A stretch of DNA of 64,000 nucleotides from Terriglobia bacterium (GTDB taxonomy: Bacteria > Acidobacteriota > Terriglobia > UBA7540): the NCBI GenBank assembly GCA_035315065.1, contig DATFYM010000002.1, forward strand, positions 5,949 through 69,948. Direction: 5' to 3'. Shown here one piece after another: positions 4,278 to 60,918 of the stretch. The notes beneath the pieces were generated by a model. That model was not told the DNA's origin and searched no databases. It saw only the letters and a list, made by a program, of their open reading frames with translations. The first letter of the stretch is position 1. Each line of letters starts with the position of its first letter. The position numbers were made by a program, and so were the translations under genes.

Positions 4278-5826
4278 CGGCATCGGGAGCGTGAGGCTGG
4301 CCGAAAACCAGGGCGGAGAACTGGAAAACATCCGTATCCTCGTTCTGCCAGCAGCGCCGCGGCAGTCCCGCCTTGACGCACGTCTGGTCGAGGAAGGTCG
4401 TCCGATCCCAGTGCTCCTCACTGGCGACCTGAGGCAAAAGCACCCCTTGCGATTCGCCCTCCCGCACGAGTAATCCATCATGGCCGACCTGGATTTGCTT
4501 CCAGTCCGTCACCCGGCGCAGCGGTGACAGGACCGAGATCTCGTATTCCAGCTCACCCAGTTCGGCAGCGGAGACCGGCGAAAAGCGCGGGTCTCGAACT
4601 GCCGCAAATGCCGCCACGTCGCGCACCGTCATACAGAGAGGTTTGAGGGGTGTGATGTAGCCGATACACCCGCGCAGCTCTCCTTTCTTCTTTAGCGTCA
4701 CGAAGGCGCCGCGGTCCCGCGTCAGAGCTTCGAGCCCCCCGGGCGAGCACTCATAGAGCTTGCCCTCGCGTACGGCGCTTTCCACGGACTTTTTCGCGAT
4801 CGTCATCAGCGCCTGCTCTTCCTTCACGTCCAGCCTGAACTCAGCGCCTTTCGAACCGCGTGACGCCGCCTCCTTGACGAACGCCTCCGCTCCGTAGCCG
4901 ACCACCCGACTCTTGTCGGGGGTGACGTCTCCCGAGTTGGCGTATTTGAGGATGATGGCGCGATTGGCTCCCAGGCGCTCGGCCGCGATCATCGCTGCCA
5001 CGATACCCCCTCCGCCGCAAGCCTCCCACACCCGCTGCTCGAAGTTGCCCGACATGTTGAAGTAGTCCCACTCTTCGATCGCTTTCAGCGTCTTGTGGTC
5101 GATGGTCTCCGCCTCGTCGTAGGGATGGTAATGCGACATATCGGAGCTGGCCACGATGAGGGTGTTAAAGTCGCCATCGGCGGTCGTCCCCTCCTTCTCG
5201 ATGAGCTTGGCCAGGCTCACGCCCAGCGCCCGCGAGGTGCCGTAGTCTTGTTCGCCCATCACCACCGGCACCAGCTTGAATTCGCCCAGCACGCGTTGCA
5301 GGAAGGGCAGTTCGTCCTCCAACGCATGTTCCCACCGGCCTTGAACCTCTCCATGTCCCTGGCCGGAGAACTTGATGAGCGGACTCATAGCCACCAGCTT
5401 GGCGGCAAAAGCCTTGTCGACCAGGACCTGGCCCAGCGGCGTAGCGTAGGCGTCGCCGTCATAGACTGAATTGAAGGGGAAGGCCTCATAGTGGCTGGGC
5501 GCTATCACCACCACGCGAGTGAACTTCCGTCCCCGCAGCAGAGCGTAGGAGTACGCCGCCACCGGACCGGAAAAGGGATAACCCGCGTGCGGCGCAACCA
5601 GCGCCACCAGCGGCCCCTTGAGTGCCGGCGCCGTTGCCTGAGCCAGAAAGTCGTCCACCATTTTGCCCAGTTCCTTCGGGTCGGCGGGATAGAAGCTCCC
5701 GGCAACTCCGGGCTGTCTTACCTTTGGTTTGTCAGCCGCTCTGGCATGGCCGCGCGGCAGCGAACAAGCCAACAACAGAAATAGGGAAGGAAAGTAGCGC
5801 CAATCTAGTTTCTTGGTCACGCTCAT
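4201..5826 (-). CDS. AmmeMemoRadiSam system protein B (Memo-like) fused to protein A (AMMECR1), with N-terminal signal-like leader
   Basis: Leader MSVTKKLDWRYFPSLFLLLACSLPRGHARA. Memo blocks PHAGYPFSGPVAAYSY, IAPSHY, SSDMSHY. AMMECR1 blocks GAFVTLKKKGELRGCIGYI, LLPQVA. Confidence 0.85.
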   Translation of the reverse strand: MSVTKKLDWRYFPSLFLLLACSLPRGHARAADKPKVRQPGVAGSFYPADPKELGKMVDDFLAQATAPALKGPLVALVAPHAGYPFSGPVAAYSYALLRGRKFTRVVVIAPSHYEAFPFNSVYDGDAYATPLGQVLVDKAFAAKLVAMSPLIKFSGQGHGEVQGRWEHALEDELPFLQRVLGEFKLVPVVMGEQDYGTSRALGVSLAKLIEKEGTTADGDFNTLIVASSDMSHYHPYDEAETIDHKTLKAIEEWDYFNMSGNFEQRVWEACGGGGIVAAMIAAERLGANRAIILKYANSGDVTPDKSRVVGYGAEAFVKEAASRGSKGAEFRLDVKEEQALMTIAKKSVESAVREGKLYECSPGGLEALTRDRGAFVTLKKKGELRGCIGYITPLKPLCMTVRDVAAFAAVRDPRFSPVSAAELGELEYEISVLSPLRRVTDWKQIQVGHDGLLVREGESQGVLLPQVASEEHWDRTTFLDQTCVKAGLPRRCWQNEDTDVFQFSALVFGQPHAPDAVMPDQPGVPPSRDMQGRQVPGSPPH

Positions 5827-5885
5827 AGTTCGTCCTCCCGAGAGTTCATGCTAAGGCGACGCTGAGGAAGGCGTGAAAAAATAAG

Positions 5886-5975
5886 AAGTTTCTCGCAAAG
5901 GCGCAAAGGCGCGCACAGTCGCAAAGAAGAAACCCTTTGCGTGCTTTGCGAACTTTGCGGCTTTGCGAGAAACTT
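5886..5975. repeat. Word-periodic palindrome, GCAAAG class
   Basis: AAGTTTCTCGCAAAGGCGCAAAG.. pairs with ..CTTTGCGGCTTTGCGAGAAACTT. A-run/T-run flanks. Lies between the radical SAM and Memo/AMMECR1 genes. Confidence 0.85.
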
Positions 5976-6148
5976 TTTGCTTTTCAACTTTCTTCACACG
6001 TTCTGAGGTCTCACCGTGCGTGAAGAGCCGCACCACCCATTTGTAAGCCAGGTCAGCCGGGTGTTTTTGCGCGCGTCCTATGGCCGAACGCTGTTCGGCC
6101 CTACGATTCTCCTTGCTGCCGACTGCCTTCTGCCTTCTGCCTACTTCT

Positions 6149-7414
6149 TCACGACCACAAGCCCGGAATCACCTGCTGGCAGTACTCGCACTTGCCTTTT
6201 CTCACGTGCATCTGGCCTACGGTGAACCCCTGGCGCTCCACCACGATACGGCGGCACTTGGGGCAGTAAGTGTTTTCCGCGGGGTGGCCGGGCACGTTAC
6301 CGATGTAAACGTAGTGGAGACCCTCGGCATCGGCGATGGCCTTGGCCCGTTCCAAGGTCTCCACCGGCGTCTCGGGAAGGTTGGTCAACAGATACTCGGG
6401 ATGGAAACGCGTGAAGTGCACGGGGACGTCAGGGCCCAAGTCGGACTTCACCCACCGTGCCATGGCCTTGAATTCCGCGTCTCCGTCGTTCAAGGTCGGG
6501 ATCACCAGGTACACGATCTCGGTCCACGTTCCCTGTTTCTTGATCGTCACCAGGGTGTCGAGCACGGGCTTCAACTCGCCGTTCACGACTTCTTTGTAGA
6601 ACTTCTCTGAAAATCCCTTCAGGTCTATCTTGATGGCGTCTACGGTCCGGCACCAGGTTTTCAGGGGATCTTGTTGGATGTACCCTCCGCTGATCACCAC
6701 GCTTTTGACGCCGACATTGTGTCCGGCCTCCGCCGCGTCCATCACATACTCGTAGAAGATCACGGGCTCGCTATAAGTGTAGGCGATCGACGGGCACTGG
6801 TACTGTTTCGCCAGCGACGCGAGATCGCGGGGCGGTACGTAGTTGCTCTTGACCTGCTCCGGCCGCACCTGGGAGATCTCCCAGTTCTGGCACATCTTGC
6901 AGTTGACGTTGCAGCCCGCCGTGGCGATGGAGAAGGCCATGGTACCGGGCTGGAAATGGAACAAGGGCTTCTTTTCAATGGGATCGACGTGCGCGGTCAC
7001 CACCCGTGAATGGACCAGGCTGTAGTATTTGCCCCCGCGGTTCTCCCGCGCGCCGCAGTAGCCCCGCTCGCGATCGTCGATCACGCACTCGCGCGGGCAA
7101 AGCTTGCACTTGGTCTTCTTGTACGCGAGCTTCTCGTAGAACTTCGCTTCGACGATGAATTGCGAATCGTCAGCCGCCGCCGTGCCCGTTGGGATGGGAC
7201 TTGTTGGGATGGGACTTGCCCCACCGCCGGAGGCAGGCCCGGAAAGAAGTCCTATCGGGATCGCGCTCGCCGACGCCAGCGCACAACCGGCCAGGCAGGG
7301 AAGCGCGGCGGCTTTCAGGAACGCCCTGCGATCAACCCCCGAGTTCTGATCCCAAGTCAGGAACCGGCGGTCGCCGATCTTCAACCCCTGCTTTTCGGTG
7401 GCTTCGTTCCTCAT
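6149..7414 (-). CDS. AmmeMemoRadiSam system radical SAM enzyme with twin-arginine/lipobox-type N-terminus
   Basis: CNVNCKMC (CxxxCxxC) cluster motif. N-terminus DRRAFLKAAALPCLAGCALASASA. Adjacent to the Memo/AMMECR1 gene. The ATG at 7414 lies inside a repeat element, and a TTG at 7384 is an alternative start. Confidence 0.85.
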   Translation of the reverse strand: MRNEATEKQGLKIGDRRFLTWDQNSGVDRRAFLKAAALPCLAGCALASASAIPIGLLSGPASGGGASPIPTSPIPTGTAAADDSQFIVEAKFYEKLAYKKTKCKLCPRECVIDDRERGYCGARENRGGKYYSLVHSRVVTAHVDPIEKKPLFHFQPGTMAFSIATAGCNVNCKMCQNWEISQVRPEQVKSNYVPPRDLASLAKQYQCPSIAYTYSEPVIFYEYVMDAAEAGHNVGVKSVVISGGYIQQDPLKTWCRTVDAIKIDLKGFSEKFYKEVVNGELKPVLDTLVTIKKQGTWTEIVYLVIPTLNDGDAEFKAMARWVKSDLGPDVPVHFTRFHPEYLLTNLPETPVETLERAKAIADAEGLHYVYIGNVPGHPAENTYCPKCRRIVVERQGFTVGQMHVRKGKCEYCQQVIPGLWS

Positions 7415-7500
7415 CTTTTCCTATCGACTTCCTTTATTTTCATACAAATCGGTGGCTTCGTTTTTCAAAAAGCTCTCAGCTTTCAGCTCTCAGCTGTCAG
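7396..7500 (+). repeat. Element A copy (two GGTGGCTTCGTT cores ~54 nt apart plus CAGC-word tail)
   Basis: CGGTGGCTTCGTTCC at 7396 and CAAATCGGTGGCTTCGTTTTTCAAAAAGCTCTCAGCTTTCAGC at 7445. Core 1 overlaps the first codons of the radical SAM ORF. Confidence 0.85.
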
Positions 7501-7810
7501 TTTTCAGTTCCAGCCCCTTTCCCGCTTGACTTTCCCTCGTTAATACCGCCCCTCCCGGGTTTTCCACCGTCCGTGCTCCCCGATCTGCGAGGCCGGTCAA
7601 TAGTAAGGACTGGTTGGCGATCCGAAAACGCCAAATGGGTTCGTATGGAAAACCCAACCCAAGATGTCCTTTGCTGCCAATACAGATTTGGGTTCGGTCC
7701 GATTTTTTCGCCTTTCTTTCCGGATTTCTCGATATATTTGCTGACGTCATGCATCCACTCTGTCCAGTACAACCTCGTTACTCTTATGGTAAAATAGGCG
7801 GAAAGAATAA

Positions 7811-7909
7811 GAGGTTTCTCGCAAAGCCGCAAAGTTTAGGAGGAGTCGCAAAGAAGCAACTTCTTCTCTTTGTTTGCATTGCGAACTTTGCGCCTTGGCG
7901 AGAAACTCC
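7811..7909. repeat. Word-periodic palindrome, GCAAAG class
   Basis: GAGGTTTCTCGCAAAGCCGCAAAG.. / ..CTTTGCGCCTTGGCGAGAAACTCC. Sister of the 5886 copy. Confidence 0.85.
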
Positions 7910-8044
7910 TTTGTTCTCCCCATTTCTTCACACCTTCTCAGTTTTCAGCCTTCAATCACCCAACCCCCACTTCTCACTCTCATTTCCAAGGTCAAGCCTG
8001 GGCGTTCTCTTTACCGAGAACTGATAACTGAGAACTGAAAACCC

Positions 8045-8150
8045 TCAAACGGTGGCTTCGTTCCTGACTCTTCCACAGGCCGATCCTTTGTTTTCAAGCA
8101 AATCGGTGGCTTCGTTTTTCAAAAGCTGTCGGCTTTCAGCCGTCAGTCAT
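8045..8150 (+). repeat. Element A copy
   Basis: AACGGTGGCTTCGTTCCTGACTCTTCCACAGGCCGATCCTTTGTTTTCAAGCAAATCGGTGGCTTCGTTTTTCAAAAGCTGTCGGCTTTCAGCC. About 30 nt past the ADOP stop. Confidence 0.9.
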
Positions 8151-8177
8151 CACCTTCCTCCCATTGATCGAGGGGCG

Positions 8178-10592
8178 CTATTCGGCACGCAGCGCCACCA
8201 TGGGATCCACGCAAGTGGCGCGGCGGGCTGGAATGAAAATGGCAAGCATGGCCACTGATCCGATCAGCAGCACGCTCACCAGAAAACTGAGCGGGCTCGG
8301 CCCGCCAGCCCCCGCCACGGCGGGAACCATCAGCGTGATCGCGTAAGCGGCCGTGAGTCCGACGGCCAAACCGGCCACCGCAATAACGGCCCCCTGGCGC
8401 AGGCAGAGCCAGAGTACATCCCGGCGTGGCGCTCCCAACGCCATGCGAATCCCTAGTTCCCGGCTGCGGGAACTGGCGGCATAGCTCGCGCTTCCGTAAA
8501 GTCCGACACAAGCGAGCACGACAGCTAGCGCACCCAACACGCCCAGGAGTACGCTGCCCGCGATTTCGACCTTGCGGGCAAGCCGCAGATGCTGTTTCAT
8601 CGTGCTCGCATTGACGAATTCGAGGTTCGGATGTGCCTTGTGCAACTCGCCGCGCACCAGACCCACCAGGGCTGAGGGCTCCCCGGCGGTTTCGACAACC
8701 AGCGTCATCTCGCCGAACGCTGAGCCGAGCGGTACAAATACACACTCCTGCGGCTGCTCATAAAAGCTCGAATACTTTCCATCCTCAACCACGGCCACAA
8801 CCTGCAAATTGTTGTAGCCTTCCGCTTGAATCCACCGCCCCACCACCTGGTTCGGCGGCGTGTTGGGCCACAACCGCCTCGCGGCGGTTTCATTCAGCGC
8901 GACAACCCTCGCGGCGTTCTTCGAAGCCGGCAGATCCTGCCGGACGAAGTCGCGCCCGGCCAGAACCCGAGTCCCCAGCGCGCCAAAGTAACCGGGGCCA
9001 ACGTAGATTTGGCCTACTGACCGCATGGAGTCGGGCGCGTTGCCTCCGGGTGAGGCAATCTTGAGAGAGAACATTCCGGTGTCGCCCAGCGGAACCGGAC
9101 CTGCATACGTGGCGCGTCGCGCACCGGGAAGGGCTCCAAGCTCTTCCGCGACTCCGCCCCAATTCGTGCGCTTCGAGAGGTCGAAGGAGACCACAAGAAC
9201 CAGCAGGAGTTTTCTGTCCACGTCCAAGCCGGGGTTCATTTTCAGCGCGCCGGAATAACTCAAGAGAAACCCGAAGGCGCCGGCAGCGAGAAGCTGCGCC
9301 ACCGCAATCTGGACGATGAGCAGGCCTTTCAGGACGGGCATGCGCCCTCGCGGTGGCGTAAATGCAGCGCTGGTAGCATTCAGGTCCGCGAGCACATTCC
9401 GCCGCGACGCCTGGATAGCAGGCCACGCCCCGAAAGCTATCCCCGTGGCCAGCGCGAGGAAGATGCTGTACAGCAGCACCCGCCGGTCGATGTGGATGCC
9501 GTAGTCCATCGGGATGATCAACGGACTCACGCGATTGAGCGCATAGATCAAGCAGGCAGCGAGCACCAGCCCGATCGCCACTCCGCCTATCGACAGCAAC
9601 ACGCTTTCGGTGAGGAACTGCCGAAAGATTCGCAGGCGGCTGGCGCCCAAGGCAGCGCGAATCGCGGTCTGTTGCCGCTGCCTGGCCGCGCGGGCGAGCA
9701 TCAGGTTGGCGATATTCGCACAGGCGATAAACAGCACCAGATTAACCAGCGACATCAAGATTGAACTGAAAAACAATCCCACCCGGGAGTTTTTCGTTGC
9801 TGCTTCCTCCAGATCGGCTTCGCAGTCATTGTCCGTGGCGGGATATTCCTGCCCGAGTTGCTGCGCAATCAGGTTCAACTCCGCCCGAGCTTGCGCGAAG
9901 GTGCTGCCCTGACGCAGGCGGCCCAGACTGTTCAAGTAACGCGCGTCACGCCGCATGTAATCCGCCTTCTCCAGGGCGGGCATCGAATCGAAGGTGATCC
10001 AAAGATCAACCGGGAACTGGAAGTCCAAGCCGCTAAACCCGGCGGGGGCGATTCCCACCACCGCGTACCCCTGGCCGTTGAGATAGATTGTGCTGCCGAC
10101 GAGGTCGGGCGCGCTGTTGAAGCTCCGCGTCCACAGGCGGTGGCTAATCACTATCTCCGGCACGCCGGCCTGATTCCCTCCCGTTGCTGGCGCGAAAAAC
10201 ACTCCAGCTCTGGGCTTTACGCCTAGCACGGAAAAGTAGTTCCGTGACACGTGGTTGACGGTGTGAACCTCGGCTTGGCCGTGAATTCTAATCAGACCGC
10301 CAGCGCGGTCCCACGCGATTAAGCCCGCTAGCGAACGCGAACGCCGCGCCAAGTCCGCGTAGTCCGGATAAGACATGCCTACTCCCTCATGGTGCCGGAC
10401 CATATAGACATAAACCAGTTCGTTCGGTCTCTCCACCGGCCATGGGTGCAACAGAACAGACGATACGACGCTGAACAAGGCGGAGTTTGGTCCCGTGCAG
10501 ATGGCCACCGATAACATGGCGGCGAGGGCAACAAAGGGATGCTGCCGAACCGTTCTCAGGGCGTGTCGGACATCCAAGAAGAGGCTACCCAT
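8178..10592 (-). CDS. ADOP/MacB-like ABC transporter permease (duplicated FtsX domains)
   Basis: 804 aa. Two FtsX-type modules (FIACANIANLMLARAARQRQQTAIRAALGASR..FLTES and RELGIRMALGAPRRD). C-terminus ARRATCVDPMVALRAE. Confidence 0.85.
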   Translation of the reverse strand: MGSLFLDVRHALRTVRQHPFVALAAMLSVAICTGPNSALFSVVSSVLLHPWPVERPNELVYVYMVRHHEGVGMSYPDYADLARRSRSLAGLIAWDRAGGLIRIHGQAEVHTVNHVSRNYFSVLGVKPRAGVFFAPATGGNQAGVPEIVISHRLWTRSFNSAPDLVGSTIYLNGQGYAVVGIAPAGFSGLDFQFPVDLWITFDSMPALEKADYMRRDARYLNSLGRLRQGSTFAQARAELNLIAQQLGQEYPATDNDCEADLEEAATKNSRVGLFFSSILMSLVNLVLFIACANIANLMLARAARQRQQTAIRAALGASRLRIFRQFLTESVLLSIGGVAIGLVLAACLIYALNRVSPLIIPMDYGIHIDRRVLLYSIFLALATGIAFGAWPAIQASRRNVLADLNATSAAFTPPRGRMPVLKGLLIVQIAVAQLLAAGAFGFLLSYSGALKMNPGLDVDRKLLLVLVVSFDLSKRTNWGGVAEELGALPGARRATYAGPVPLGDTGMFSLKIASPGGNAPDSMRSVGQIYVGPGYFGALGTRVLAGRDFVRQDLPASKNAARVVALNETAARRLWPNTPPNQVVGRWIQAEGYNNLQVVAVVEDGKYSSFYEQPQECVFVPLGSAFGEMTLVVETAGEPSALVGLVRGELHKAHPNLEFVNASTMKQHLRLARKVEIAGSVLLGVLGALAVVLACVGLYGSASYAASSRSRELGIRMALGAPRRDVLWLCLRQGAVIAVAGLAVGLTAAYAITLMVPAVAGAGGPSPLSFLVSVLLIGSVAMLAIFIPARRATCVDPMVALRAE

Positions 10593-10680
10593 GCTGCAAC
10601 CTCCCTAGCTGCTGGGCAACGACGCCGGGGCAGACTCGGTCTGATCTCCTCCGACATCATTTCAGTCAGGGACCACTTGC

Positions 10681-10760
10681 TTCAGACCTCCACCTTCTCA
10701 ATCAGATTAGGGTCATTCATCCCCAGCCGGTGCCGCGCATCGGCGGCGGTCGCGATGTAC
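10681..10760 (-). pseudogene. 3'-terminal remnant (~25 codons plus stop) of a DUF362-family gene
   Basis: Reverse strand reads YIATAADARHRLGMNDPNLIEKVEV*. The intact DUF362 gene at 16480 ends YIATAADARHRLGTNQPSQIEKVEV*. About 85% nt identity over ~80 nt, with no upstream ORF. Confidence 0.65.
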
Positions 10761-10964
10761 GATACTAAGACCCTTGTTTTTCATAAGCGTCGTGGCTTTC
10801 CGAGCCGCGCGGTTTCTGCCATCATAGCGTCTTCAATAGCACCGTGGCTCAAGTTGCCCCAAGAGGATTCTTCGCGTCACAATGCCAAAATCAATTCGTC
10901 AAGATCCCGGTGCGTCGCAGCCTGCTGCCCACTGCCGACTCCCGACCGGGCGACTGCCTTCCTC

Positions 10965-11050
10965 CTTACGGTGGCTTTGCTCTTCACTTCTCTCGATCGA
11001 CTTCCTTTGTTTTCAACGAAATCGGTGGCTTCGATTTTTCAAACTGCGAA
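10965..11050 (+). repeat. Element A copy (diverged core 1)
   Basis: TTACGGTGGCTTTGCTCTTCAC...CCTTTGTTTTCAACGAAATCGGTGGCTTCGATTTTTCAAAC. Confidence 0.8.
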
Positions 11051-11715
11051 CCGATCCCGCTAGCGCCGGGTTGCAACCGCAAGTCCTAGGTTCTGCATCA
11101 CCGCCGCCACCAGGAACCCGCCGAGGAGTATCCCGCCGGCAACTGCATACAGCCGGGCTGCCCGGGTTTGCGCCAGCCCCGCGCCGCCAATCGCGCCCGC
11201 GACGGTGAACTCGGCCAATTCACATGCCGCCCAAGCTGCCAACATGTCCCCGCCCAAGGGGAACATCGAGAAAAGCCCAACATTTCCAGCTACTGCGAAC
11301 ACAAGTCCAAACCCGGCGCCGAACCTGGCGCCGGATGCCGCACCACGGATGTCCAGGTGCCGCTCCAACCACAGCAGCAACGCCGTCAACAGCAGGAAAG
11401 ACCCGTAACCGAAAGGGATTCGCCGGAACATCAGCGCCGGCGGCAAGAACACCGGCCCGGGGTTGACGTAGTACCGCGACAGAAGACCGGCGTTGAACAG
11501 GAAGTCGACGCCGAGGAATGCGATCCACATCGCACCGGCGATGGCGACCATGCGTCCGATGGTCAGCCGCAGTTCAGTGTCATGTGCTGTCGTCGGGACG
11601 TTCATGCACTTCCCTCTGGTTTAAGAAGCTCTCAGCCGTCAGCCCTCAGCTTCCCGCCTTTTGCCTTTCTTTTCTCTTCCTGTCCGCCTGCTACTCGCGA
11701 CCGCTCAACGCCGGT
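11040..11715. repeat. Segmental duplication, copy 1 (181-aa gene plus flanks)
   Basis: Aligns base-for-base with 15240-15850 at offset 4200 (~93% identity), then with indels through the word-rich upstream flank. Confidence 0.9.
11060..11605 (-). CDS. Hypothetical polytopic membrane protein (181 aa), paralog 1
   Basis: 4-5 hydrophobic helices. About 93% identical to the ORF at 15260..15805. No family recognised. Confidence 0.6.
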   Translation of the reverse strand: MNVPTTAHDTELRLTIGRMVAIAGAMWIAFLGVDFLFNAGLLSRYYVNPGPVFLPPALMFRRIPFGYGSFLLLTALLLWLERHLDIRGAASGARFGAGFGLVFAVAGNVGLFSMFPLGGDMLAAWAACELAEFTVAGAIGGAGLAQTRAARLYAVAGGILLGGFLVAAVMQNLGLAVATRR

Positions 11716-11808
11716 TCCCAAAGATGTTCCGGCCCGCAGATGTCAGATATTTTCAGCTTGACTAGCGTCGGCCCTTAGCCCCCCACCTTTCCGTTTTTTC
11801 CTCTGTGA

Positions 11809-12065
11809 CAGGGCGCGACCGTTCGCATCAGATTGCACCTTGACATGAACCGCACGACTTGGCCCATTTTCCGAAAAGCCGCGCCATTCGCCTTCCGCCT
11901 TGGTGAACCTCGGAAATGGGTTCGTGTTGGGTTCGGTCCCGGGACACGATCTTGTGTTTTCAATAAGTCGGTGGCTTCGGTCCTGAAAAAATGATTACGT
12001 TTGATGCTCGACCAAGTGCTGGCCAGAGCAAATCGTCGTGCATGCTGATAATCACATATATAATG
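11809..12065 (+). repeat. Element B copy 1 (~260 nt)
   Basis: CAGGGCGCGACCGTTCGCATCAGATTG...AAATGGGTTCGTGTTGGGTTCGGTCCC...TTTTCAATAAGTCGGTGGCTTCGGTCCTGAAAAA...TGGCCAGAGCAAATCGTCG. Confidence 0.85.
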
Positions 12066-12164
12066 TAATATACCAACATGACAAATCCTGGTCCGGTCTC
12101 TAAACTCAGGTGGTTTATTGACGCACATTATGCTACCCCGAGAGCGATATGCCCGTTTGCGAAT

Positions 12165-12215
12165 CAACCAGCAAATCGGTGGATTCGTTTTTCGAAAAAC
12201 TCCCAGCTTTCAGCC
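12165..12215 (+). repeat. Element A half copy (core 2 only)
   Basis: CAGCAAATCGGTGGATTCGTTTTTCGAAAAACTCCCAGCTTTCAGCC. Confidence 0.75.
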
Positions 12216-12309
12216 GCCGCCCTATCAGCGCCTGCCCATTTGCCCTTTGCCCTTTGCCCTTTGCCATTTGCCTTCCTGCCCGCTGCCTACTGCCGACCGC
12301 TTTCCGCCC

Positions 12310-12425
12310 TCTAACGGTGGCTTCGTTCCTGACTTTTCCACCGCCCGATCCTTCGTTTTCAAGCAAATCGGTGGCTTCGTTTTTGAAAAGCTATCAGCTT
12401 TCAGCCGTCAGCCATCAGCTTCCTG
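12310..12425 (+). repeat. Element A copy
   Basis: TAACGGTGGCTTCGTTCCTGACTTTTCCACCGCCCGATCCTTCGTTTTCAAGCAAATCGGTGGCTTCGTTTTTGAAAAGCTATCAGCTTTCAGCCGTCAGCC. Confidence 0.9.
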
Positions 12426-12478
12426 CCATTTGCCTTTTGCCATTTGCCTTTTGCCTTTCTTTTCTCTTTCCTGTCGGC

Positions 12479-12737
12479 CAGGGCGCGGCCGTTCGCATCA
12501 GATTGAACCTGGACACGAACCACACGACTTGGCCCATTTTCCGAAAAGTCGCACCATTTGCCCTCCGCCTGGGTGAACTTCGGAAATGGGTTCGTAATGG
12601 GTTCGGTCCCGGGGCACGATCGTTTGTTTTCAATAAGTCGATGGCTTCGGTCCTGAAAAAAACGATTACGTTCTGCGCTCCACCAAGAACTGGCCAGAGC
12701 GAATCGTCGGGCATCTGGATGATCAAATATATGATTC
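12479..12737 (+). repeat. Element B copy 2 (~85-90% identical, offset ~670 nt, 1-nt indel)
   Basis: CAGGGCGCGGCCGTTCGCATCAGATTG...AAATGGGTTCGTAATGGGTTCGGTCCC...TTTTCAATAAGTCGATGGCTTCGGTCCTGAAAAAA. Confidence 0.85.
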
Positions 12738-13051
12738 AAGATAACTACCCTATCGTAGCTCCGCATCCGGCCGGTAAACTCCAGTTGTTTAAGTTATTTA
12801 TCAATAACTCTCATGATACCCTTCAACTAAACCGTCTGCCCGTGTATCATTCTCTGGCACAAGCTGCCGGATTCTCTCTCTACGGAGGTTTTTCCTGCCC
12901 ATCACCATCACTGCCAACTCTCAGTTGTCGGCCATCACCTTCTAGTCTTCCCGTGCCGCGCTACTGTCGGCGGGCCCTTTGCGTACCTACCGACTGCCTT
13001 CTGCCGACTGCCGACTGCTTCTTGACGACCCTCAACTCCTCTTGTCAACGG

Positions 13052-14014
13052 TTATTGCGACTTCCCTTTCGCATGTCCTTCTTCACGATAACGGAGAGCT
13101 TCAGCCGCGTCGCTTAACGGGTAGCGCCTGTCGATGACGGGTACAACTTTTCCGGCTTCAAGAAGACTTTTCAGAAAAACCAAATCCTTCGTGTTTATCT
13201 TCGCAATAAAGAAACGCATCTTCTTGCTCCCAATCCGTGATAGGAATGGTCCCAGTAACATAGCTTGAAAAACTCGACCCAAACCACCTCCGACCATGAC
13301 AAAAATTCCGTCCTGACTCAGCGCACGCCGGTAATCGAAAATCGAATGATGGGCGTTCACACCGAGAATGAGATCGTAACGCTGGCCACTTTGCGTGAAA
13401 TCTTCTCGAGTGTAATCAATGACATGGTCTGCGCCAAGCGATCGCGCCGTGTCCACATTCCTCGTACTGCACACGGCAGTGACCTCAGCCCCGAACGATT
13501 TGGCAATCTGGACCGCAAACGTACCCACACCACCAGACGCGCCATCAACCAGAACCTTTTGGCCTCGCTGAATCCGTCCCTTGTCACGAAGACCCTGGAG
13601 GGCGGTGATTGCCGCCACGGGTACAGCTGCGGCATCCTCGAACGATAGGTTGGCCGGCTTCAGCGCCAGTTTATCTTCAACCGCACACACATACTCGGCA
13701 AACCCTCCCACACCTTTTCCCCCGAACACCTCGTCGCCGGGCTGAAACTGTTTTACGTGTCTGCCAACCGCTTCAACTCGCCCCGCGATATCACAGCCTA
13801 TGACCTTGTATTTTGGTTTGAGCAGCCCCCCGATCATCGGGAGGAAGAACAACGGTCCTCTCATGGAGAAACTGTCAAGCGGATTTACAGATGCCGCGTA
13901 GATTTTTATCAGGACCTCGTTGTCCGCGGGGGTAGGTACTGCAATCTCGCTTAGCTGCAACACATCCGGCGGTCCGTATTGCGTGTGTACGATCGCTTTC
14001 ATAAAGTGCTTCAA
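13052..14014 (-). CDS. NAD(P)-dependent zinc-type alcohol dehydrogenase/quinone oxidoreductase family (MDR)
   Basis: MKAIVHTQYGPPDVLQL start region and nucleotide-binding block VDGASGGVGTFAVQIAKSFGAEV. The ATG at 14002 is an alternative start. Confidence 0.85.
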   Translation of the reverse strand: MKHFMKAIVHTQYGPPDVLQLSEIAVPTPADNEVLIKIYAASVNPLDSFSMRGPLFFLPMIGGLLKPKYKVIGCDIAGRVEAVGRHVKQFQPGDEVFGGKGVGGFAEYVCAVEDKLALKPANLSFEDAAAVPVAAITALQGLRDKGRIQRGQKVLVDGASGGVGTFAVQIAKSFGAEVTAVCSTRNVDTARSLGADHVIDYTREDFTQSGQRYDLILGVNAHHSIFDYRRALSQDGIFVMVGGGLGRVFQAMLLGPFLSRIGSKKMRFFIAKINTKDLVFLKSLLEAGKVVPVIDRRYPLSDAAEALRYREEGHAKGKSQ

Positions 14015-14127
14015 GAGTTCTCAGCTCTCGGCCGTCAGCCATCAGCTTCCCGCGCTGCCTTTTGACTTCCGGCGACTCCGTTCTGCCGACCATCGCCTGG
14101 AATGGCCCTCCGACCGTGATCCGTCCC

Positions 14128-14215
14128 CCAAATGGGTTCGTAATGGGTTCGGTCCCAAGTATCGCCTTTCGTTTTCAATAACTCAGTGGCTTCGGTCCTT
14201 CAAAATCGACTGATT
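14128..14215 (+). repeat. Element B partial copy
   Basis: CAAATGGGTTCGTAATGGGTTCGGTCCCAAG...TTTTCAATAACTCAGTGGCTTCGGTCCTTCAAAATCG. Confidence 0.75.
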
Positions 14216-14284
14216 CGCTTCCTTCTTGTCACAGCCTTGACACTGCCGAATGCCTTCTGCCTGCCGTCGGCTGCTTTCCGCGTT

Positions 14285-14400
14285 CTAACGGTGGCTTCGT
14301 TCCTGATTTCTCCAGAGCCCGATCCTTTGTTTTCTATCAAATCGGTGGCCTCTTTCTTCAAAAAGTTCCCGGCTTTCAGTTGTCAGCCATCGGTTTCCGA
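14285..14400 (+). repeat. Element A copy
   Basis: TAACGGTGGCTTCGTTCCTGATTTCTCCAGAGCCCGATCCTTTGTTTTCTATCAAATCGGTGGCCTCTTTCTTCAAAAAG. Just past the DUF4386 gene stop. Confidence 0.85.
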
Positions 14401-14409
14401 TGATTCCGT

Positions 14410-15093
14410 TCAAGGTTGCTTTGGTTCTGAAGCACTATTCATGCCTTTGACCAGAATCCACACCCCGATTGTAAATTCAAAGGGGACGTAGGGAAGGTAC
14501 AGGAAAAATGAAACTTGATGGCCAAACACAGCAAACAGTGTCCCTACCAGGCAAGGGAAAACTGCTATCAGACCCCAGAGAGACAGCGCACGGGGAACAA
14601 TTCTCGATTTGTCGAGCAGGTAATAAAAAAGGATCGCACCCAAACAAAAAGCCAACATACTCAGCGTAGCTCCAACAAAATCCATGGATTCCAACGCCAG
14701 GTTTCCTATCGTCTGCAAATAGGCAGGGTGTCCTGCGGTTACATATTCCTGACTTGTGCGAAGGAGAGAGAAAGAGGCTATTTTGCTGGTAGCAACCAGC
14801 GCCGCTTCTAAGACATAGAACCCCATGGCAACAAGAGCTACGGTTTCGTTCTGATTCCTCAGGGTTATAAAAAGAACGGCCCCTAAAAAGATGACGCCAA
14901 AGGCGGTGATCATATCAACCAAAATGTTTGCTCTCATCAGCCAGGCATTATTGGCAACCTTGATCATACTTTCACTTATATTTCCAGTCGGCGTCAATGC
15001 CAGTTTCAGAATCAGTCCACTGATCAAAGATGTAATCGCCTGAAGAAGAAATGCACCTCCCAAAACTCTTGAAGTACTGTTGACTGAATCCAT
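14410..15093 (-). CDS. DUF4386-like membrane protein
   Basis: About 6 TM helices. C-terminal pattern SRIVPRALSLWGLIAV..LPYVPFEFTIGVWILVKG resembles DUF4386 members (recalled, not searched). Confidence 0.6.
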   Translation of the reverse strand: MDSVNSTSRVLGGAFLLQAITSLISGLILKLALTPTGNISESMIKVANNAWLMRANILVDMITAFGVIFLGAVLFITLRNQNETVALVAMGFYVLEAALVATSKIASFSLLRTSQEYVTAGHPAYLQTIGNLALESMDFVGATLSMLAFCLGAILFYYLLDKSRIVPRALSLWGLIAVFPCLVGTLFAVFGHQVSFFLYLPYVPFEFTIGVWILVKGMNSASEPKQP

Positions 15094-15164
15094 TTCTTAT
15101 TCCCTGTTGTTTATTTCGATGACGCTGTCGATTGACTTCCGCCTACTGACGACTGCTTTCCGCC

Positions 15165-15250
15165 CTCTAAGGTGGCTTCGTTCCTGACTTTTCCAGAACC
15201 CGATCCTTTGTTTTCATGCAAATCGGTGGCTTCGTTTTTCAAATTGGGAA
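15165..15250 (+). repeat. Element A copy
   Basis: TAAGGTGGCTTCGTTCCTGACTTTTCCAGAACCCGATCCTTTGTTTTCATGCAAATCGGTGGCTTCGTTTTTCAAAT. Confidence 0.9.
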
Positions 15251-15935
15251 CTGATCCCGCTAGCGCCGGGTTGCGACCGCAAGTCCTGCGTTCTGCATCA
15301 CCGCCGCCACCAGGAAACCCCCGATTAGTATCCCGCCCGCGACCGCATACAGCCGGGTCGCTGGGGCCTGCGCCAGCCCCGCGCCGCCAATGCCGCCGGC
15401 GACGGTGAACTCGGCCCATTCACATGCCGCCCAAGCTGCCAACATGTCCCCGCCCAGCGGGAACATCGAGAACAGCCCAATGTTTCCAGCTACTGCGAAC
15501 ACAAGTCCAAACGCGGCGCCGAACCTGGCGCCCGCCGCCGCACCACGGATGCCCAGGTGCCGCTCCAACCACAGCAGCAACGCAGTCAACAGCAGAAAAG
15601 AACCGTAACCGAAAGGGATTCGCCGAAACATCAGCGCAGGCGGCAAGAACACCGGCCCGGGGTTGACGTAGTACCGCGACAGAAGACCGGCACTGAACAG
15701 GAAGTCTACACCGAGGAATGCGATCCACATCGCGCCGGCGATGGCGACCAGGCGTCCCATAGTCAGCCGCAGTTCATTGTCATGTGCTGTCGTCGGGACG
15801 TTCATGCACTTCCCTCTGGTTTAAGAAGCTCTCAGCTCTCAGCCATCAGCTATCAGCCATCAGCTTCCTGCCTTTTGCCTTTTGCCCTTTGCCTTTCTTT
15901 TCTCTTCCTGCCGACTACCTGCTGCCGACCGCTTT
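15240..15935. repeat. Segmental duplication, copy 2
   Basis: See copy 1. A direct repeat bracketing the oxidoreductase and DUF4386 genes. Confidence 0.9.
15260..15805 (-). CDS. Hypothetical polytopic membrane protein (181 aa), paralog 2
   Basis: Near-identical to 11060..11605, at an offset of exactly 4200 nt. Confidence 0.6.
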   Translation of the reverse strand: MNVPTTAHDNELRLTMGRLVAIAGAMWIAFLGVDFLFSAGLLSRYYVNPGPVFLPPALMFRRIPFGYGSFLLLTALLLWLERHLGIRGAAAGARFGAAFGLVFAVAGNIGLFSMFPLGGDMLAAWAACEWAEFTVAGGIGGAGLAQAPATRLYAVAGGILIGGFLVAAVMQNAGLAVATRR

Positions 15936-15939
15936 CCGC

Positions 15940-16045
15940 CCTGTAACGGTGGCTTCGTTCCTGACTTTTCCACAGCCCGATCCTTTGTTTTCATGCAAAT
16001 CGGTGGCTTCGTTTTTGGAAGCTCTCAGCTTTCAGCCATCAGTCT
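15940..16045 (+). repeat. Element A copy
   Basis: TAACGGTGGCTTCGTTCCTGACTTTTCCACAGCCCGATCCTTTGTTTTCATGCAAATCGGTGGCTTCGTTTTTGGAAGCTCTCAGCTTTCAGCC. Confidence 0.9.
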
Positions 16046-16264
16046 GCCCGCCACTTGCCGTCTGCCCATTGCCTTTTGCCTGTCTTGCTCCCTGCGACCC
16101 GCTTCTCCTGACTGACGAGAAAGAGAGGAAAGGGGGTGGCCATCTGCCCCAGGGCTTTCGCCCTGGGCTACATTATTTCGCCGCTCCGCGGCTTCCCCAC
16201 CTGCCTTCTGCCTCCTCTCGCCAGCGCGGCCTGTCGCCTGGACTGCCTGCCGGCTGCCACTGCC

Positions 16265-16385
16265 TCCTAACGGTGGCTTCGTTCCTGACTTTCCCACCGC
16301 CTGAGCCTTTGTTTTCTAGCAAATCGGTGGCTTCGTTTTTCAAAAAGCTTTTAGCTATCAGTCGTCAGCCATCAGCTTCCGGTCT
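16265..16385 (+). repeat. Element A copy
   Basis: TAACGGTGGCTTCGTTCCTGACTTTCCCACCGCCTGAGCCTTTGTTTTCTAGCAAATCGGTGGCTTCGTTTTTCAAAAAGC. About 100 nt past the DUF362 stop. Confidence 0.9.
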
Positions 16386-16444
16386 CACTGTGCCACTTGC
16401 GTTCCGGCTTGTCTGGGTCCGGAGCCCGACCGGAAACCGTCTTG

Positions 16445-16478
16445 CAATCGTCAACCGTAAATCGTAAATCGTCAATTC
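16445..16478. repeat. ATTGACG-word array (half palindrome) abutting the DUF362 stop
   Basis: CAATCGTCAACCGTAAATCGTAAATCGTCAATTC. The inverted partner lies at 17671 on the other side of the gene. Confidence 0.8.
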
Positions 16479-16479
16479 C

Positions 16480-17502
16480 TCACACCTCCACCTTCTCAAT
16501 CTGACTCGGCTGATTCGTCCCCAGCCGGTGCCGGGCATCGGCGGCCGTCGCGATGTACGTGGGCGCCCGTTTCTCGGCCTCCAGGGACTTCATGCCTTGC
16601 TCCGACCTTTTCTGTTCAATCAGCCGCCAACCGGTGTAGTCGAGAGCCACGGGGTCCTGGGCCACCAGCAATCCGTTAAAGGGCCAAGACCACTGAGGCA
16701 TGTAGGAAGGCCCGCCTTCGTATTGCGCGGTCGTGGCGTCACAGATGCTGAGCCGGATTTTCTGCCGAATCGGCGGCAGCATATTTACGTCGGCGATGTA
16801 GGGGTCGCCCACATCGAGGTGATACTTGTTGGGGTTGTGGATGGCGCCGAAGAGATTCTTGAGTGCCAGCGTTATGCCGGCGATTCCATGGTCCTTGAGC
16901 ACGGGCAGGTTGATGACCGCGTCGCAAGTACGAGTGAGGGTTCTCGACACCAAGCTGCCAACACTGCCGTAGATCGCGAGGTCCTGCTCGTAACCCGCGC
17001 TATCGTTGCCGATGTAGCGGATCCCTGACTGCTTCGATCCAGGCCGAAAGCCCGCGCTTTCCAGATCGCCGTCCAGCCGGTCCCACACCACGATGTCCTT
17101 GATGCCCGCCTGCTGGAGTCGCTCCGCGATCGCTTCCACCAGCATCACGTTGGTGGAGGCGGTGCCTCGTCCCGCCAGGCAGTTGACTTTCAGGCCTACC
17201 ACTTCGCCCGGCCGCACCAACTTCTTCCAAGCGGCTAAGGGAGAGTCGCAGTCATAGAAAGACTGCATGGCTCGATCCAGCAGTTTCAGGAGCCGTGCGG
17301 AGTCGACGCTCGCGCCTGACCCTCGCAGCGCCGCGTCCCGCGCCACCACGACTCTCGATTTAGTCTGTAGGGCGGCAGGTGCCGATCCCGCATGCGGGAC
17401 CGGCGCTACACCCAACGCGGCGCCAGCAATGCAGGTCCGCAGAAACTCGCGACGATTAGACCCACAAAAAATGGGCTTTAACTCCGAATTCTCCAGTGGC
17501 AT
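16480..17502 (-). CDS. DUF362 domain protein with twin-arginine leader
   Basis: MPLENSELKPIFCGSNRREFLRTCIAGAALGVA leader. Shares the block INLPVLKDHGIAGITLALKNLFG with the neighbouring paralog. Start trimmed to the ATG at 17502. Confidence 0.75.
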   Translation of the reverse strand: MPLENSELKPIFCGSNRREFLRTCIAGAALGVAPVPHAGSAPAALQTKSRVVVARDAALRGSGASVDSARLLKLLDRAMQSFYDCDSPLAAWKKLVRPGEVVGLKVNCLAGRGTASTNVMLVEAIAERLQQAGIKDIVVWDRLDGDLESAGFRPGSKQSGIRYIGNDSAGYEQDLAIYGSVGSLVSRTLTRTCDAVINLPVLKDHGIAGITLALKNLFGAIHNPNKYHLDVGDPYIADVNMLPPIRQKIRLSICDATTAQYEGGPSYMPQWSWPFNGLLVAQDPVALDYTGWRLIEQKRSEQGMKSLEAEKRAPTYIATAADARHRLGTNQPSQIEKVEV

Positions 17503-17670
17503 GGTTGCACCCGTCAGCCCAGATCGGTTAGCCAGGCACACGAATGCCCGACGCGATGCCCTAAAGTTAAACCCTTGACAAAAGTGCCGTCAGTATCACC
17601 GGTCACCCGTGCCTGTGACTAACGTCACTGCGGGTCAGGTCCTTAGTTGGATAAGTTCCAGATGGCCGTT

Positions 17671-17815
17671 AAGAATTGACGGTTGCAGATTGACGATTGG
17701 AAGAGGACCACCAATGACGATTGTCTGGGCCTATTGAAGGCCGCCGCGGCCTGCTTCTCTTTCTTTTTCAGTCGTCAATCGTAAATCTGTCCCGCCAGGC
17801 GGGATCAATTCTTCG
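17671..17815. repeat. Word-periodic palindrome, ATTGACG class
   Basis: AAGAATTGACGGTTGCAGATTGACGATTGG ... CAGTCGTCAATCGTAAATCTG ... GATCAATTCTT. Confidence 0.8.
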
Positions 17816-17905
17816 CCTTTGTCAGGAATTGGGTGTAACAGCACATTAGCCAGTCCGCACCCTGGGCCTTATATCCCGTTTACGGGGTTATTTCAGGGGC
17901 CATCT

Positions 17906-18907
17906 ATGGGCGCCAAAACCGATCTGCCGGGCCGTCGTCACGCTTTGCTTAAACTGGCGCGCTTGGGAGGATTGGGAGGGTTGGGAGCAGCTACCGCCGG
18001 TCTGGGTGTCTGGCTTAGCGCCCGCAGCAAGCAGCCCGAAGAGAACCCAGAGGAGAGCTTAGCTGCGAGCTTTGAACCCCGTCGAAACCTGCCGCCCGAT
18101 CCAAACCTGCCCGAGTTGGTGGTGGTGCAAGGCGAGGACCCGCGACTGCTGGTGCGCAGATCGCTCGAAGGACTGGGCGGCATAGGGCGGTTTGTCGTCC
18201 AGGGTGATGTGGTCCTGATCAAGCCGAACATCGCCTGGGACCGCACGCCGGAGCAGGCGGCCAACACCAATCCCCAGGTGGTGGCGGAGATGGTCCGACT
18301 CTGCCGGGAGGCCGGGGCGCGGAAGGTGATCGTCACTGACGTGAGTTGCAACGACCCCCGGCGCTGTTTCCGGCGCAGTGGCATCGCTGAGGCCGCGAGC
18401 GCCGAGGGCGCGGAAGTGGTCCTGCCCGAGGATCGGCACTTCAAGAGGGTCAACCTGCCAGGAAACCTCGGTTCGTGGCCCGTGCTGGAGCCCCTTCTCA
18501 CCGCCGATAAGGTGATCAACATCCCTGTCGCTAAACATCACAGCCTGACAGGCGTGACCCTGGGCATGAAGAACTGGATCGGCATCGTGGGCGGGCCTCG
18601 GGTTTGGCTGCACCAGGATATTCACACCAGTGTAGTCGACCTGGCCGAATTCGCGCGGCCGACGGTCACCATCATCGATGCCTATCGCGTCCTCGTGCGC
18701 AACGGCCCCACCGGCGGAAGCCTTTCCGACGTCGAGGTAAGGAAGACGTTGATTGCCGGCACCGACCCAGTAGCGCTGGACGCCTATGCCGCCAAGACCT
18801 ATTGGAACCTGGACCCGCGATCGCTGAGGTATCTGAAGATCGCCAGCGATCGTGGTCTGGGAAACATGAACTTCGAGCAAGTGAGGTCGCAAAAGGTGAC
18901 GCTGTGA
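17906..18907 (+). CDS. DUF362 domain protein with twin-arginine leader (paralog)
   Basis: MGAKTDLPGRRHALLKLARLGGLGG leader. Blocks VVLIKPNIAWD and INIPVAKHHSLTGVTLGMKNWIG. Start trimmed to the ATG at 17906. Confidence 0.75.
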   Translation: MGAKTDLPGRRHALLKLARLGGLGGLGAATAGLGVWLSARSKQPEENPEESLAASFEPRRNLPPDPNLPELVVVQGEDPRLLVRRSLEGLGGIGRFVVQGDVVLIKPNIAWDRTPEQAANTNPQVVAEMVRLCREAGARKVIVTDVSCNDPRRCFRRSGIAEAASAEGAEVVLPEDRHFKRVNLPGNLGSWPVLEPLLTADKVINIPVAKHHSLTGVTLGMKNWIGIVGGPRVWLHQDIHTSVVDLAEFARPTVTIIDAYRVLVRNGPTGGSLSDVEVRKTLIAGTDPVALDAYAAKTYWNLDPRSLRYLKIASDRGLGNMNFEQVRSQKVTL

Positions 18908-18960
18908 AGGAAGGGCCGCTTTTATGCGGAGCGACATAATTCGCTGCGGGAAAACTCCAT

Positions 18961-19147
18961 GGCTGTCATGCTGAACGCAGATTCCATGAGCCTTTGGCTC
19001 GCCACTGTGCATGAAAATGGCCTCGTTGGAGCAAGTCTTTTTTTTTCAGTACCGCCTTTGGCTATTTTCATGGCAGCGAAGCATCTCTCTTCTTGCCGGC
19101 TGAGGCAGCACAAGAGAGATTCTTCGCTACGCTTAGAATGACATGCC
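18961..19147. repeat. Degenerate palindrome of the GTCATTCTGAGCGAAGCGAAGAATC type
   Basis: GGCTGTCATGCTGAACGCAGATTCC ... GAGATTCTTCGCTACGCTTAGAATGACATGCC. Confidence 0.65.
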
Positions 19148-19202
19148 GACGCTTATCGCGAATGCATGTTGTTTTGTCGAAGTCGTCAATCAGCCGTCGT
19201 GA

Positions 19203-59933: not shown

Positions 59934-60918
59934 AGTGGATAATAAGACGTACGGCGTGCTTTTCCTTCCTATCTTGAGGCTGCAAAGTCAGCCTGATCGG
60001 TTGAATCTATTTCTTCTCTTGCCATCGTCGATCGTCGACCTGCAATCGGCAATTACTCTCTCCGTTTTGCGCTTGACTACCAAAAGCCAGCAACCCCCTC
60101 TTGTCTAACCACCTTCTGTTTCATAGAGACAGTGGATCATTCACTAGATCCTCCAGGTGTTCAGTCACCGAAAACTGATGACCCAAAACTGCTAATCACT
60201 TATTTTCAATCACATGGCGGCTTCACGCTGAATAAGCGTCTTGTTTTCATAGATATACTGGCCTTTTGGGTTCGGTCCTGAAAACCTAAGCCAAGATCTA
60301 CTTTGTTTTCAATACAAATTGGGTTCGGTCCTTGCATTTTCGATAGATAACCCGACTCTCAGACTGCCATCGGCGGCAAACTCCGACCTTCCCCTGCCCG
60401 CCGCCATCCGAGGTCATGCTTATGAGTATCCGCCCCTTTCCAACGCGAATCGGCAACCGAGAGAGTGGGAGGGCCGCCGCATCATAATTCATTGAATCTA
60501 TGCAAGATCTCTGTTTCCTTCCGGTCTCGCCCGATTCTCTCCCAGCAGCAGTTGGCCCGCACGGACTCCTCCGGCTCGCCCATCAGCTTGCTGGCCGCCC
60601 GCTGTTTTCTGCCCTCCTGCGGATTGGGATGGCACTTGGCTGGCGACGCTTCCGAACAACGGATTCCTATTTGCAAACGATCCTGTCACCTCTTGCCTTC
60701 GACTTTCGGTGCTCGCCGGTATGTTCGGGCGGCCTATTAGCCTTATTGGAATACCCCATGAGTAATAGACTCCTGCGTGCGAACCGATGTGGCCGAACCA
60801 TATAGGACGAGCTTACCGCAGGATTATAGGAAAGTCAACTCCCCTTTTTATACGATAGTCTTCCAAGTGAGGTTTCGCCCAACTTGGTGTAAACTGGCCC
60901 CCGGGCACCGACGACATC

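Follow-up and report, generated by a model that had tools for sequence, protein, structure and literature searches.

We analyzed a 64-kb stretch of DNA (64,000 nt; hereafter the window) on contig C2 of a soil acidobacterium (Terriglobia), in which a non-coding unit of ~85 bp, referred to as family A, recurs between minus-strand genes. Window coordinates equal C2 coordinates minus 5948. The core of the unit, GGTGGCTTCGTT, matched the window 16 times with no more than one mismatch, against 0.35 matches expected from shuffled sequences, and all matches were on the plus strand, from 7397 to 16337. A profile search, a repeat finder and direct reading gave eight full copies and a half copy, at the places where the original prediction, made from the letters of the window, had put them. 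The profile search detected no further full copy elsewhere in the window, in agreement with the earlier visual scan. On the quoted strand every copy runs antisense to its minus-strand neighbors, as had been predicted; the copies are annotated below on the minus strand, on which they read in gene sense.

Copy 1 (7395–7474; nhmmer E = 1e-18) belongs to a subtype with TCGACTTCC in place of CCGATCC, and its core-1 end overlaps the start of the longest open reading frame (ORF; ATG at 7414) of a radical SAM gene. In the relative L145, the orthologous radical SAM gene begins 166 nt downstream of the copy found there. Copy 2 (8046–8127; E = 3.8e-24), whose core-2 side is followed by a period-7 word array as far as ~8157, lies 21–50 nt past the stop of a gene for a MacB/FtsX-like permease (8178–10592; Pfam). 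Copy 3 (10965–11044) is a diverged copy matched by the profile; it lies 15 nt past the stop of a gene for a 181-aa membrane protein, within a 705-nt duplication. The half copy (12168–12200) consists of the core-2 box alone and was detected by nhmmer as a partial match to model positions 51–83. Copy 4 (12311–12391; profile match) has period-7 arrays on both flanks, namely TGCCCTT at 12233–12272, AGCTATC at 12389–12420 and TGCCTTT at 12424–12458. Copy 5 (14285–14366) is found directly past the stop of a DUF4386 gene (14410–15093; Pfam), and copy 6 (15168–15247; profile match) lies 78 nt before the start of the same gene and 15 nt past the stop of the second copy of the 181-aa gene. Copy 7 (15944–16023; profile match) is followed by copy 8 (16267–16349), ~94 nt past the stop of a DUF362 gene (16480–17541; Pfam). 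As had been counted before, five of the seven minus-strand genes have a copy within ~100 nt of the stop (stops at 16480, 15260, 14410, 11060 and 8178). The interval from 7052 to 20000 was recovered with 99.98% identity and no gaps in contigs assembled independently from three other samples. Thus, the repeat cluster is not an assembly artefact.

With a profile made from the eight copies of the window, we searched the whole genome (7.07 Mb, 258 contigs, 60% GC). This revealed 63 full copies, which are distributed over 32 contigs and make up 40 intergenic loci; the window contains the largest cluster, with eight of the 63. The exact core occurred 108 times genome-wide against ~1 expected. All strong profile matches were units of 75–85 nt. 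Head-to-tail arrays were common, with a period of 200–220 bp and, at one locus, of 315 bp.

To place the copies relative to genes, we used our own codon-usage gene caller, which called 5,387 genes (82% coding) and agreed with the long ORFs of the window region, six genes being matched by Pfam. Among the family A loci in co-directional spacers, 26 were in sense and one in antisense orientation (binomial p = 4e-7), and the single antisense locus sits at a contig end. The remaining loci were in divergent spacers (5), in convergent spacers (3) or at contig ends (5). Two sister families, B and C, which are described below, were found in sense orientation at ratios of 12:0 and 14:0, and the generic unit at 38:1. 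Of 26 generic units in divergent spacers, 21 were closer to the gene with which they are co-oriented. The orientation of the copies switches with the local genes inside a single contig, as on C67, which indicates that the polarity tracks transcription and not replication. The general intergenic GC skew was as small as +0.04, indicating that no genome-wide compositional rule forces the orientation; a genome-wide purine skew was accordingly rejected as its cause.

The strong preference in orientation was not accompanied by a preference in position. The mean relative position in the spacer was 0.45, and 17, 13 and 9 copies fell into its successive thirds; copies were separated from the upstream stop by 5 to >2000 nt and from the downstream start by 55 to ~1100 nt. 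Since there is no positional rule genome-wide, the placement 3' of genes is a local property of the window. The original prediction thus holds in part: the genome-wide scan showed orientation to be non-random, whereas the association with gene 3' ends failed, as the presence of copies in divergent and convergent spacers also shows. The density of loci per kb of spacer differed little between co-directional and divergent spacers, and convergent spacers had a lower one. Spacers that contain copies are long (median, 616 nt) as compared with the co-directional spacers as a whole (median, 147 nt).

In the alignment, family A has two identical 12-bp boxes (box extent 12–16 bp) that are direct and not inverted, as had been stated for the cores. 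In gene sense, a run of GCTGANN heptamers is followed by UUUUGAAAAACGAAGCCACCG (box 2), AUUUGAUUGAWAACAAAGGAUCGG, ~9 variable nt and UCAGGAACGAAGCCACCGUUGG (box 1). On the quoted strand, an ungapped stack of all copies with per-column counts gave the consensus CCNAA-CGGTGGCTTCGTTCCTGA-(~9 variable nt, one conserved C)-CCGATCCTTTGTT(A/T)TCAA(T/G)CAAAT-CGGTGGCTTCGTTTTTCAAAA. The box-to-box distance was 54 nt in 61 of 62 copies, and a third conserved box, AAAGGAUCG, lies between the two. The boxes are near-invariant, while the ~9-nt middle block and all sequence around the element diverge. When the alignment was read by eye, sub-lineages were recognized in which copies on different contigs have a common variable block. 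Reading by eye also suggested a 27-nt sub-periodicity, in which box 2, the middle box and box 1 all resemble TTGAWAAC-RAAG; it was not reported by TRF. A GATC and an AT-tract are conserved beside box 2. The sense strand is rich in purines (A,.30; G,.31), and RNA from the antisense orientation would have a C/G ratio of 1.47, with C exceeding G in 95% of the copies.

The unit is embedded in short words. On the quoted strand, an AGCYNTC heptamer array follows it in 39 of the 63 copies, and the opposite side carries either heptamers of the TGCCNNC type or one arm of a word hairpin (GTCGAAG/GTTGAAG). When the sequence is read in gene sense, the GCTGANN arrays supply a TGA in each of the three frames directly upstream of the element. 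The spacers of the window in general were full of period-7 arrays (AGCTNTC, TGCCNTT and CCGACTG; 6107–6142, 7471–7514, 12233–12272, 12389–12458, 12990–13029 and 15827–15896).

Genes downstream of the copies are functionally unrelated. A copy lies 61 nt upstream of rpoC for the RNA polymerase β' subunit (Pfam), another is present in the rplA–rplJ spacer between the genes for ribosomal proteins L1 and L10 (L10 by Pfam), and the ffh–rpsP spacer has the order SRP54, copy, transposase gene, copy and S16 (Pfam for S16). An xseB gene was also found among the flanking genes (XseB by Pfam), and further neighbors, such as those for glycerol kinase, TrpS and QueE, were assigned from N-terminal sequence and not by a profile. 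The sense orientation is thus tolerated inside essential gene clusters, and the spacers that hold family A are probably transcribed with their flanking genes, including those of housekeeping operons. Because the downstream genes are unrelated in function, a pathway-specific operator is excluded, and a shared regulon was rejected for the same reason. Rather than a gene-end signal, family A is a new family among the poorly understood interspersed intergenic repeats of bacteria.

The original prediction had argued against a structured RNA, and the folding analyses bear this out. RNAalifold gave no consensus structure on either strand, and six window copies folded no better than shuffled sequences on both strands, with z-scores between −1.45 and +1.19. 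One hairpin recurred in the sense RNA (CCGAUUU...GGAUCGG, ~−10 kcal/mol), which is invariant in family A and not kept in other genera. Shuffling the variable block altered stability slightly (z = −0.74 in sense and −0.49 in antisense), and pairing of this block with a box was rejected because the effect was weak. In an Rfam search of 5500–18500, no family matched the copies; the sole match at E ≤ 1 was Acido-Lenti-1 at 16148–16193 on the plus strand, which falls between two family A copies and not inside them. Several known signals were also rejected. Counts of sigma-70 promoters and intrinsic terminators were at or under the shuffle expectation, ARAGORN found nothing that would support a tRNA-like T-loop origin of GGNTTCGNTCC, and the 16S leader of G013, a genome of the same family, has the canonical boxA GCTCTTTGACAA, while the unit reads UUGAWAACAAAGGAUCG in sense, so that a boxA antitermination signal was discarded.

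A translated mini-ORF, or a coupling peptide in the style of MIRU, is very improbable. The frame in question, KNEATDLIDNKGS-xxxx-IRNEATV (K-NEATDLIDNKGS-xxxx-IRNEATV), has no stop between the boxes in 59 of the 62 copies, and its commonest variants, as judged by eye, are mostly third-codon or conservative (D/E, I/L, N/N). However, two other frames are equally open, in 58 and 60 of the 62 copies, the alignment contains no conserved start codon, and the TGA codons directly upstream close all three frames. The 200–220 bp periods are not multiples of 3, and GC content at third codon positions (GC3) inside the repeats is at the non-coding level. A coding peptide was therefore rejected. One ORF of 835 codons (C166:67502–70006) does read in frame through repeats: its first ~345 codons are gene-like (GC3, 0.8–0.88), and it continues without a stop through three 315-bp units, each with an in-frame family A copy, where GC3 drops to ~0.6. 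The stop codon at this locus appears to have been lost or shifted through insertion of the repeats.

The invariant boxes, the exact spacing, the lack of excess structure, the polarity without a positional rule and the probable co-transcription of the spacers together point to strand-specific recognition of a linear sequence. Our tentative reading, to which we give a probability of about 0.45, is that family A is a lineage-specific, transcription-polarized, interspersed and tandem intergenic repeat of a STAR- or MIRU-like kind, which is co-transcribed and read as linear sequence by a trans-acting factor. In such a case, the mRNA would contain the element as a purine-rich stretch without structure, and the two identical boxes and the AAAGGAUCG box would be read linearly by the factor, most likely an RNA-binding protein. 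The factor may act on long untranslated operon spacers, affecting stability, processing or protection from premature termination. The proposal of a protein-binding site made in the original prediction survives in this form, since sequence-specific recognition by a factor is still the best reading, while the MITE-like alternative offered with it fails (see below). Several points weigh against this reading. The trans-acting factor is hypothetical, co-transcription is deduced from position, and the gene calls come from a rough, purpose-built caller. The cross-species consensus of family A is inflated by the scan pattern with which copies were collected. The conservation of the boxes could reflect selection at the level of the element in a mobile family, and the sub-lineages with a common variable block also fit spread from a master copy.

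The main rival is a selfish or neutral repeat without function, of which antisense insertions have been purged because their C-rich, G-poor, Rho-loading-like RNA would cause operon polarity in untranslated spacers. The base composition of the antisense RNA fits this explanation, as do the copies inside essential operons, where polar insertions would be lethal, the absence of a fixed position and the appearance and disappearance of loci between relatives. It does not account for boxes that remain near-invariant while the 9-nt block and the flanks diverge, nor for units with the same boxes that persist across genera, and the intergenic GC skew is small. We regard it as possible but doubtful. A double-stranded DNA site ranks third and is unlikely. 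The direct boxes, 54 bp apart, would lie ~5 helical turns from each other on the same face and would be bound by a dimeric or tandem protein, for example a nucleoid-associated or elongation-linked one. The near-constant spacing, the lack of RNA structure and the conserved GATC and AT-tract agree with such a site, but the 26:1 transcriptional polarity lacks an obvious reason when there is no fixed distance to a promoter, and the neighboring genes make no plausible regulon. A wider scheme, somewhat less likely still, would treat families A, B and C and the heptamer arrays as a polar 'spacer-marking' system suited to a genome in which untranslated operon spacers are unusually long. The sense RNA, unstructured and rich in purines and with its two identical boxes, would recruit a factor that protects the transcript (e.g., against Rho or nucleases), and the antisense RNA, being C-rich and G-poor, would invite Rho, so that the element would work as a one-way transcription valve.

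Related units were found outside this genome. Among 40 species representatives, only half-unit matches were detected: 9 of the 24 genomes that belong to other genera of the same family had them, and the 16 genomes from outside the family had none. The half-units in other genera share the CCGATCCTTTGTTTTCAA and GGNTTCGTT boxes. When the two-box pattern was searched in one genome per species, only chance or coding matches were obtained. A metagenome scan detected the two-box form on at least 119 contigs, of which 29 represent this same population and 86 were from relatives with 80–93% identity in the alignable coding DNA. The 133 copies on the 86 contigs of relatives showed the same consensus and the same variable block, although this conservation is inflated because the scan pattern demanded exact matches to parts of both cores. 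The consensus and the copies in orthologous spacers of relatives at this nucleotide identity make the recent spread proposed in the original prediction doubtful. In a literature search on acidobacterial intergenic repeats nothing relevant turned up, and we found no description of family A.

The copy number differed between orthologous spacers. The spacer upstream of rpoC contained 1, 1, 2, 3 and 3 copies in five related taxa, and within the spacer only the element aligned between them, whereas the coding flanks were 85–93% identical. Other orthologous spacers gave copy numbers of 4 vs 2, 2 vs 4, 3 vs 3, 2 vs 2 and 1 vs 1, and four spacers had copies in a relative and none in this genome. In one comparison, 1.5 kb of family A, family D and word modules (L136) corresponded to a 181-nt unrelated word hairpin (C241:2825–3006). 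Strain-level empty sites were not detected, as other assemblies of the same population were identical. The interval between the DUF362 and radical SAM genes is 2.5 kb in L145 (6698–9142), with one gene and one copy, and 9.3 kb in the window (7159–16480), with six genes and eight copies. The interval of the window contains the MacB-like permease gene, both copies of the 181-aa membrane protein gene, a zinc alcohol dehydrogenase gene and the DUF4386 gene; that of L145 contains one different ORF of 482 aa. The window interval is a gene-gain hot spot lined with repeats. The 705-nt duplication of the 181-aa gene has a family A copy at one edge and a heptamer array at the other. The repeats thus mark sites of recombination-driven gain, loss and duplication, and they probably promote these events. 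Multiplication within loci may proceed by unequal recombination or slippage, and that between loci by recombination between the word-array flanks, which would need no dedicated transposase. An 80-nt fragment upstream of the permease gene (10682–10761) matches the 3' end of the DUF362 gene (16480–16559) with 89% identity and is probably a remnant of rearrangement.

The contrast between the two DUF362-to-radical-SAM intervals, and the duplication bounded by a copy and a heptamer array, would also be expected if the unit were an integron attC-like cassette site and each gene of the 9-kb cluster had brought a copy along. However, the element, with its direct boxes, is not a palindrome, and copies are present in housekeeping operons. 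No match to a tyrosine recombinase (PF00589) was obtained on the 73-kb contig C2 or on any contig with a full copy. An attC-like array was thus rejected, and we consider such an origin hardly credible.

The occurrence on many contigs, the high copy number, the sub-lineages sharing a variable block and the presence/absence differences between relatives are features that a non-autonomous transposable element would show, be it a miniature inverted-repeat transposable element (MITE) or a repetitive extragenic palindromic (REP) sequence mobilized by a REP-associated tyrosine transposase (RAYT). The ends of the unit are direct, however: no inverted arms bracketed any copy in a search of 6–18 kb, and no terminal inverted repeats were present in the 63-copy alignment. 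A target-site duplication was not definable, as the element borders merge into word arrays, and no parent insertion sequence (IS) with matching ends was found. The only IS-family gene beside copies, at C40:7427–8923, encodes a putative IS630-type transposase of 377 aa, the family of which was judged from N-terminal sequence and not by a profile; it is flanked by two direct copies with different variable blocks, and family A is not its terminal repeat. In the ffh–rpsP spacer of the relative L076, four copies were found in ~0.9 kb, which is too short for such a transposase gene; the spacer here is 2.1 kb. The genome has 13 Y1_Tnp genes, but these are flanked by Acido-Lenti-1 hairpins in inverted pairs, and no unit of families A–D was detected within 1.5 kb of the six strongest of them. 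Since a different repeat flanks the Y1 genes, a REP/RAYT link of family A was rejected. In addition, the orthologous 'empty' spacer had a wholly different sequence, with no clean excision site. The MITE-like nature suggested in the original prediction was not upheld, and a transposable element is improbable.

The arrangement of Acido-Lenti-1 deserves a separate mention. Its copies flank Y1_Tnp (IS200/RAYT-like) genes in inverted pairs at loci L022, L023 and L025, for example at 1393–1439 on the minus strand and 1997–2043 on the plus strand of L023, which suggests that Acido-Lenti-1 belongs to a RAYT system as its REP-like element and is not a small RNA.

Among known systems, mycobacterial interspersed repetitive units (MIRU), reportedly described by Supply and colleagues in 1997, are said to be direct tandem repeats of 40–100 bp in operon spacers, with one orientation to transcription and a strain-variable copy number; their small ORFs are said to overlap with their ends the stop and start codons of the flanking genes. 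Family A is likewise one-oriented (26:1) and present in the rplA–rplJ and ffh–rpsP spacers and upstream of rpoC. It differs in that its distances to the flanking codons vary from 5 to >2000 nt and that stop codons occur in every frame ahead of the unit. STAR elements of Staphylococcus aureus are intergenic 14-bp direct repeats with a recurring spacer of ~40 bp; their loci expand and contract and are conserved across lineages, and their function and mode of spread are unknown (PMC3532100). Family A also consists of short direct repeats with a recurring spacer at many intergenic loci, with copy numbers that vary between lineages. However, there is no sequence similarity, and family A has exactly two boxes at a fixed 54 nt and a third conserved box, is embedded in heptamer arrays and is strongly polar; orientation is unmentioned in PMC3532100. 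The pneumococcal BOX, RUP and SPRITE elements, ERIC and Correia are small interspersed repeats in transcribed intergenic DNA that are thought to act on the co-transcribed mRNA, BOX being modular and variable in length (PMC3049150). These have inverted ends or extensive secondary structure, whereas family A has neither. Like REP sequences and bacterial interspersed mosaic elements (BIME) with their RAYT, family A is a high-copy extragenic repeat, and this genome also holds a REP/RAYT-like system. That system uses the Acido-Lenti-1 hairpins, in contrast to family A, which is non-palindromic and not found beside Y1_Tnp genes.

STAR- and MIRU-type families are widespread and none has a settled function. 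Family A may offer a handle on them, with its near-absolute polarity, fixed box spacing, sites in essential operons, family-wide related units and natural metagenomic copy-number variants. If its polarity is due to an RNA-level factor or to avoidance of Rho, family A would provide a general lesson on how bacteria maintain operon transcription across long non-coding spacers. In practical terms, the repeats break assemblies, many copies being located at contig ends, and seed spurious ORFs and ORF extensions; they also mark gene-gain hot spots such as the 9-kb cluster of the window.

At least three sister families (B, C and D) share the unit GAAGCCAYC-N-TTGAWAAC-AAAG in gene sense. The single units that had been noted as related to family A are real and belong to B and C. 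Family B, which includes the 'element B' of the original prediction, has 23 copies genome-wide. Three were located by the repeat finder on the minus strand of the window at 11914–11992, 12584–12660 and 14130–14205, reading AAATGGGTTCG..GGGTTCGGTCCC..TTGTGTTTTCAATAAGTCGGTGGCTTCGGTCCTGAAAAA on the plus strand in the first. Family C has 43 copies genome-wide, including the minus-strand units at 7.64 kb (7620–7700; AAATGGGTTCG..AACCCAACCCAAGAT..TTTGGGTTCGGTCCG on the plus strand, by direct reading) and 60.3 kb (60230–60340; match at C2 66249, i.e., window ~60302). Family D is small. In contrast to family A, family C forms a strong hairpin on the sense strand, which includes G-U pairs and has a folding energy of −15 to −21 kcal/mol. 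Divergent spacers are over-represented among its loci (11 of the 27 that were classified), and its mean relative position of 0.61 is nearer to the downstream start; the placement and the hairpin would fit a 5'-leader element. Another class of word palindrome occurs at gene boundaries, namely a long inverted repeat of CGCAAAG-type words (AAGTTTCTCGCAAAGGCGCAAAG...CTTTGCGGCTTTGCGAGAAACTT), which is present twice in the window, at 5880–5980 and 7809–7911.

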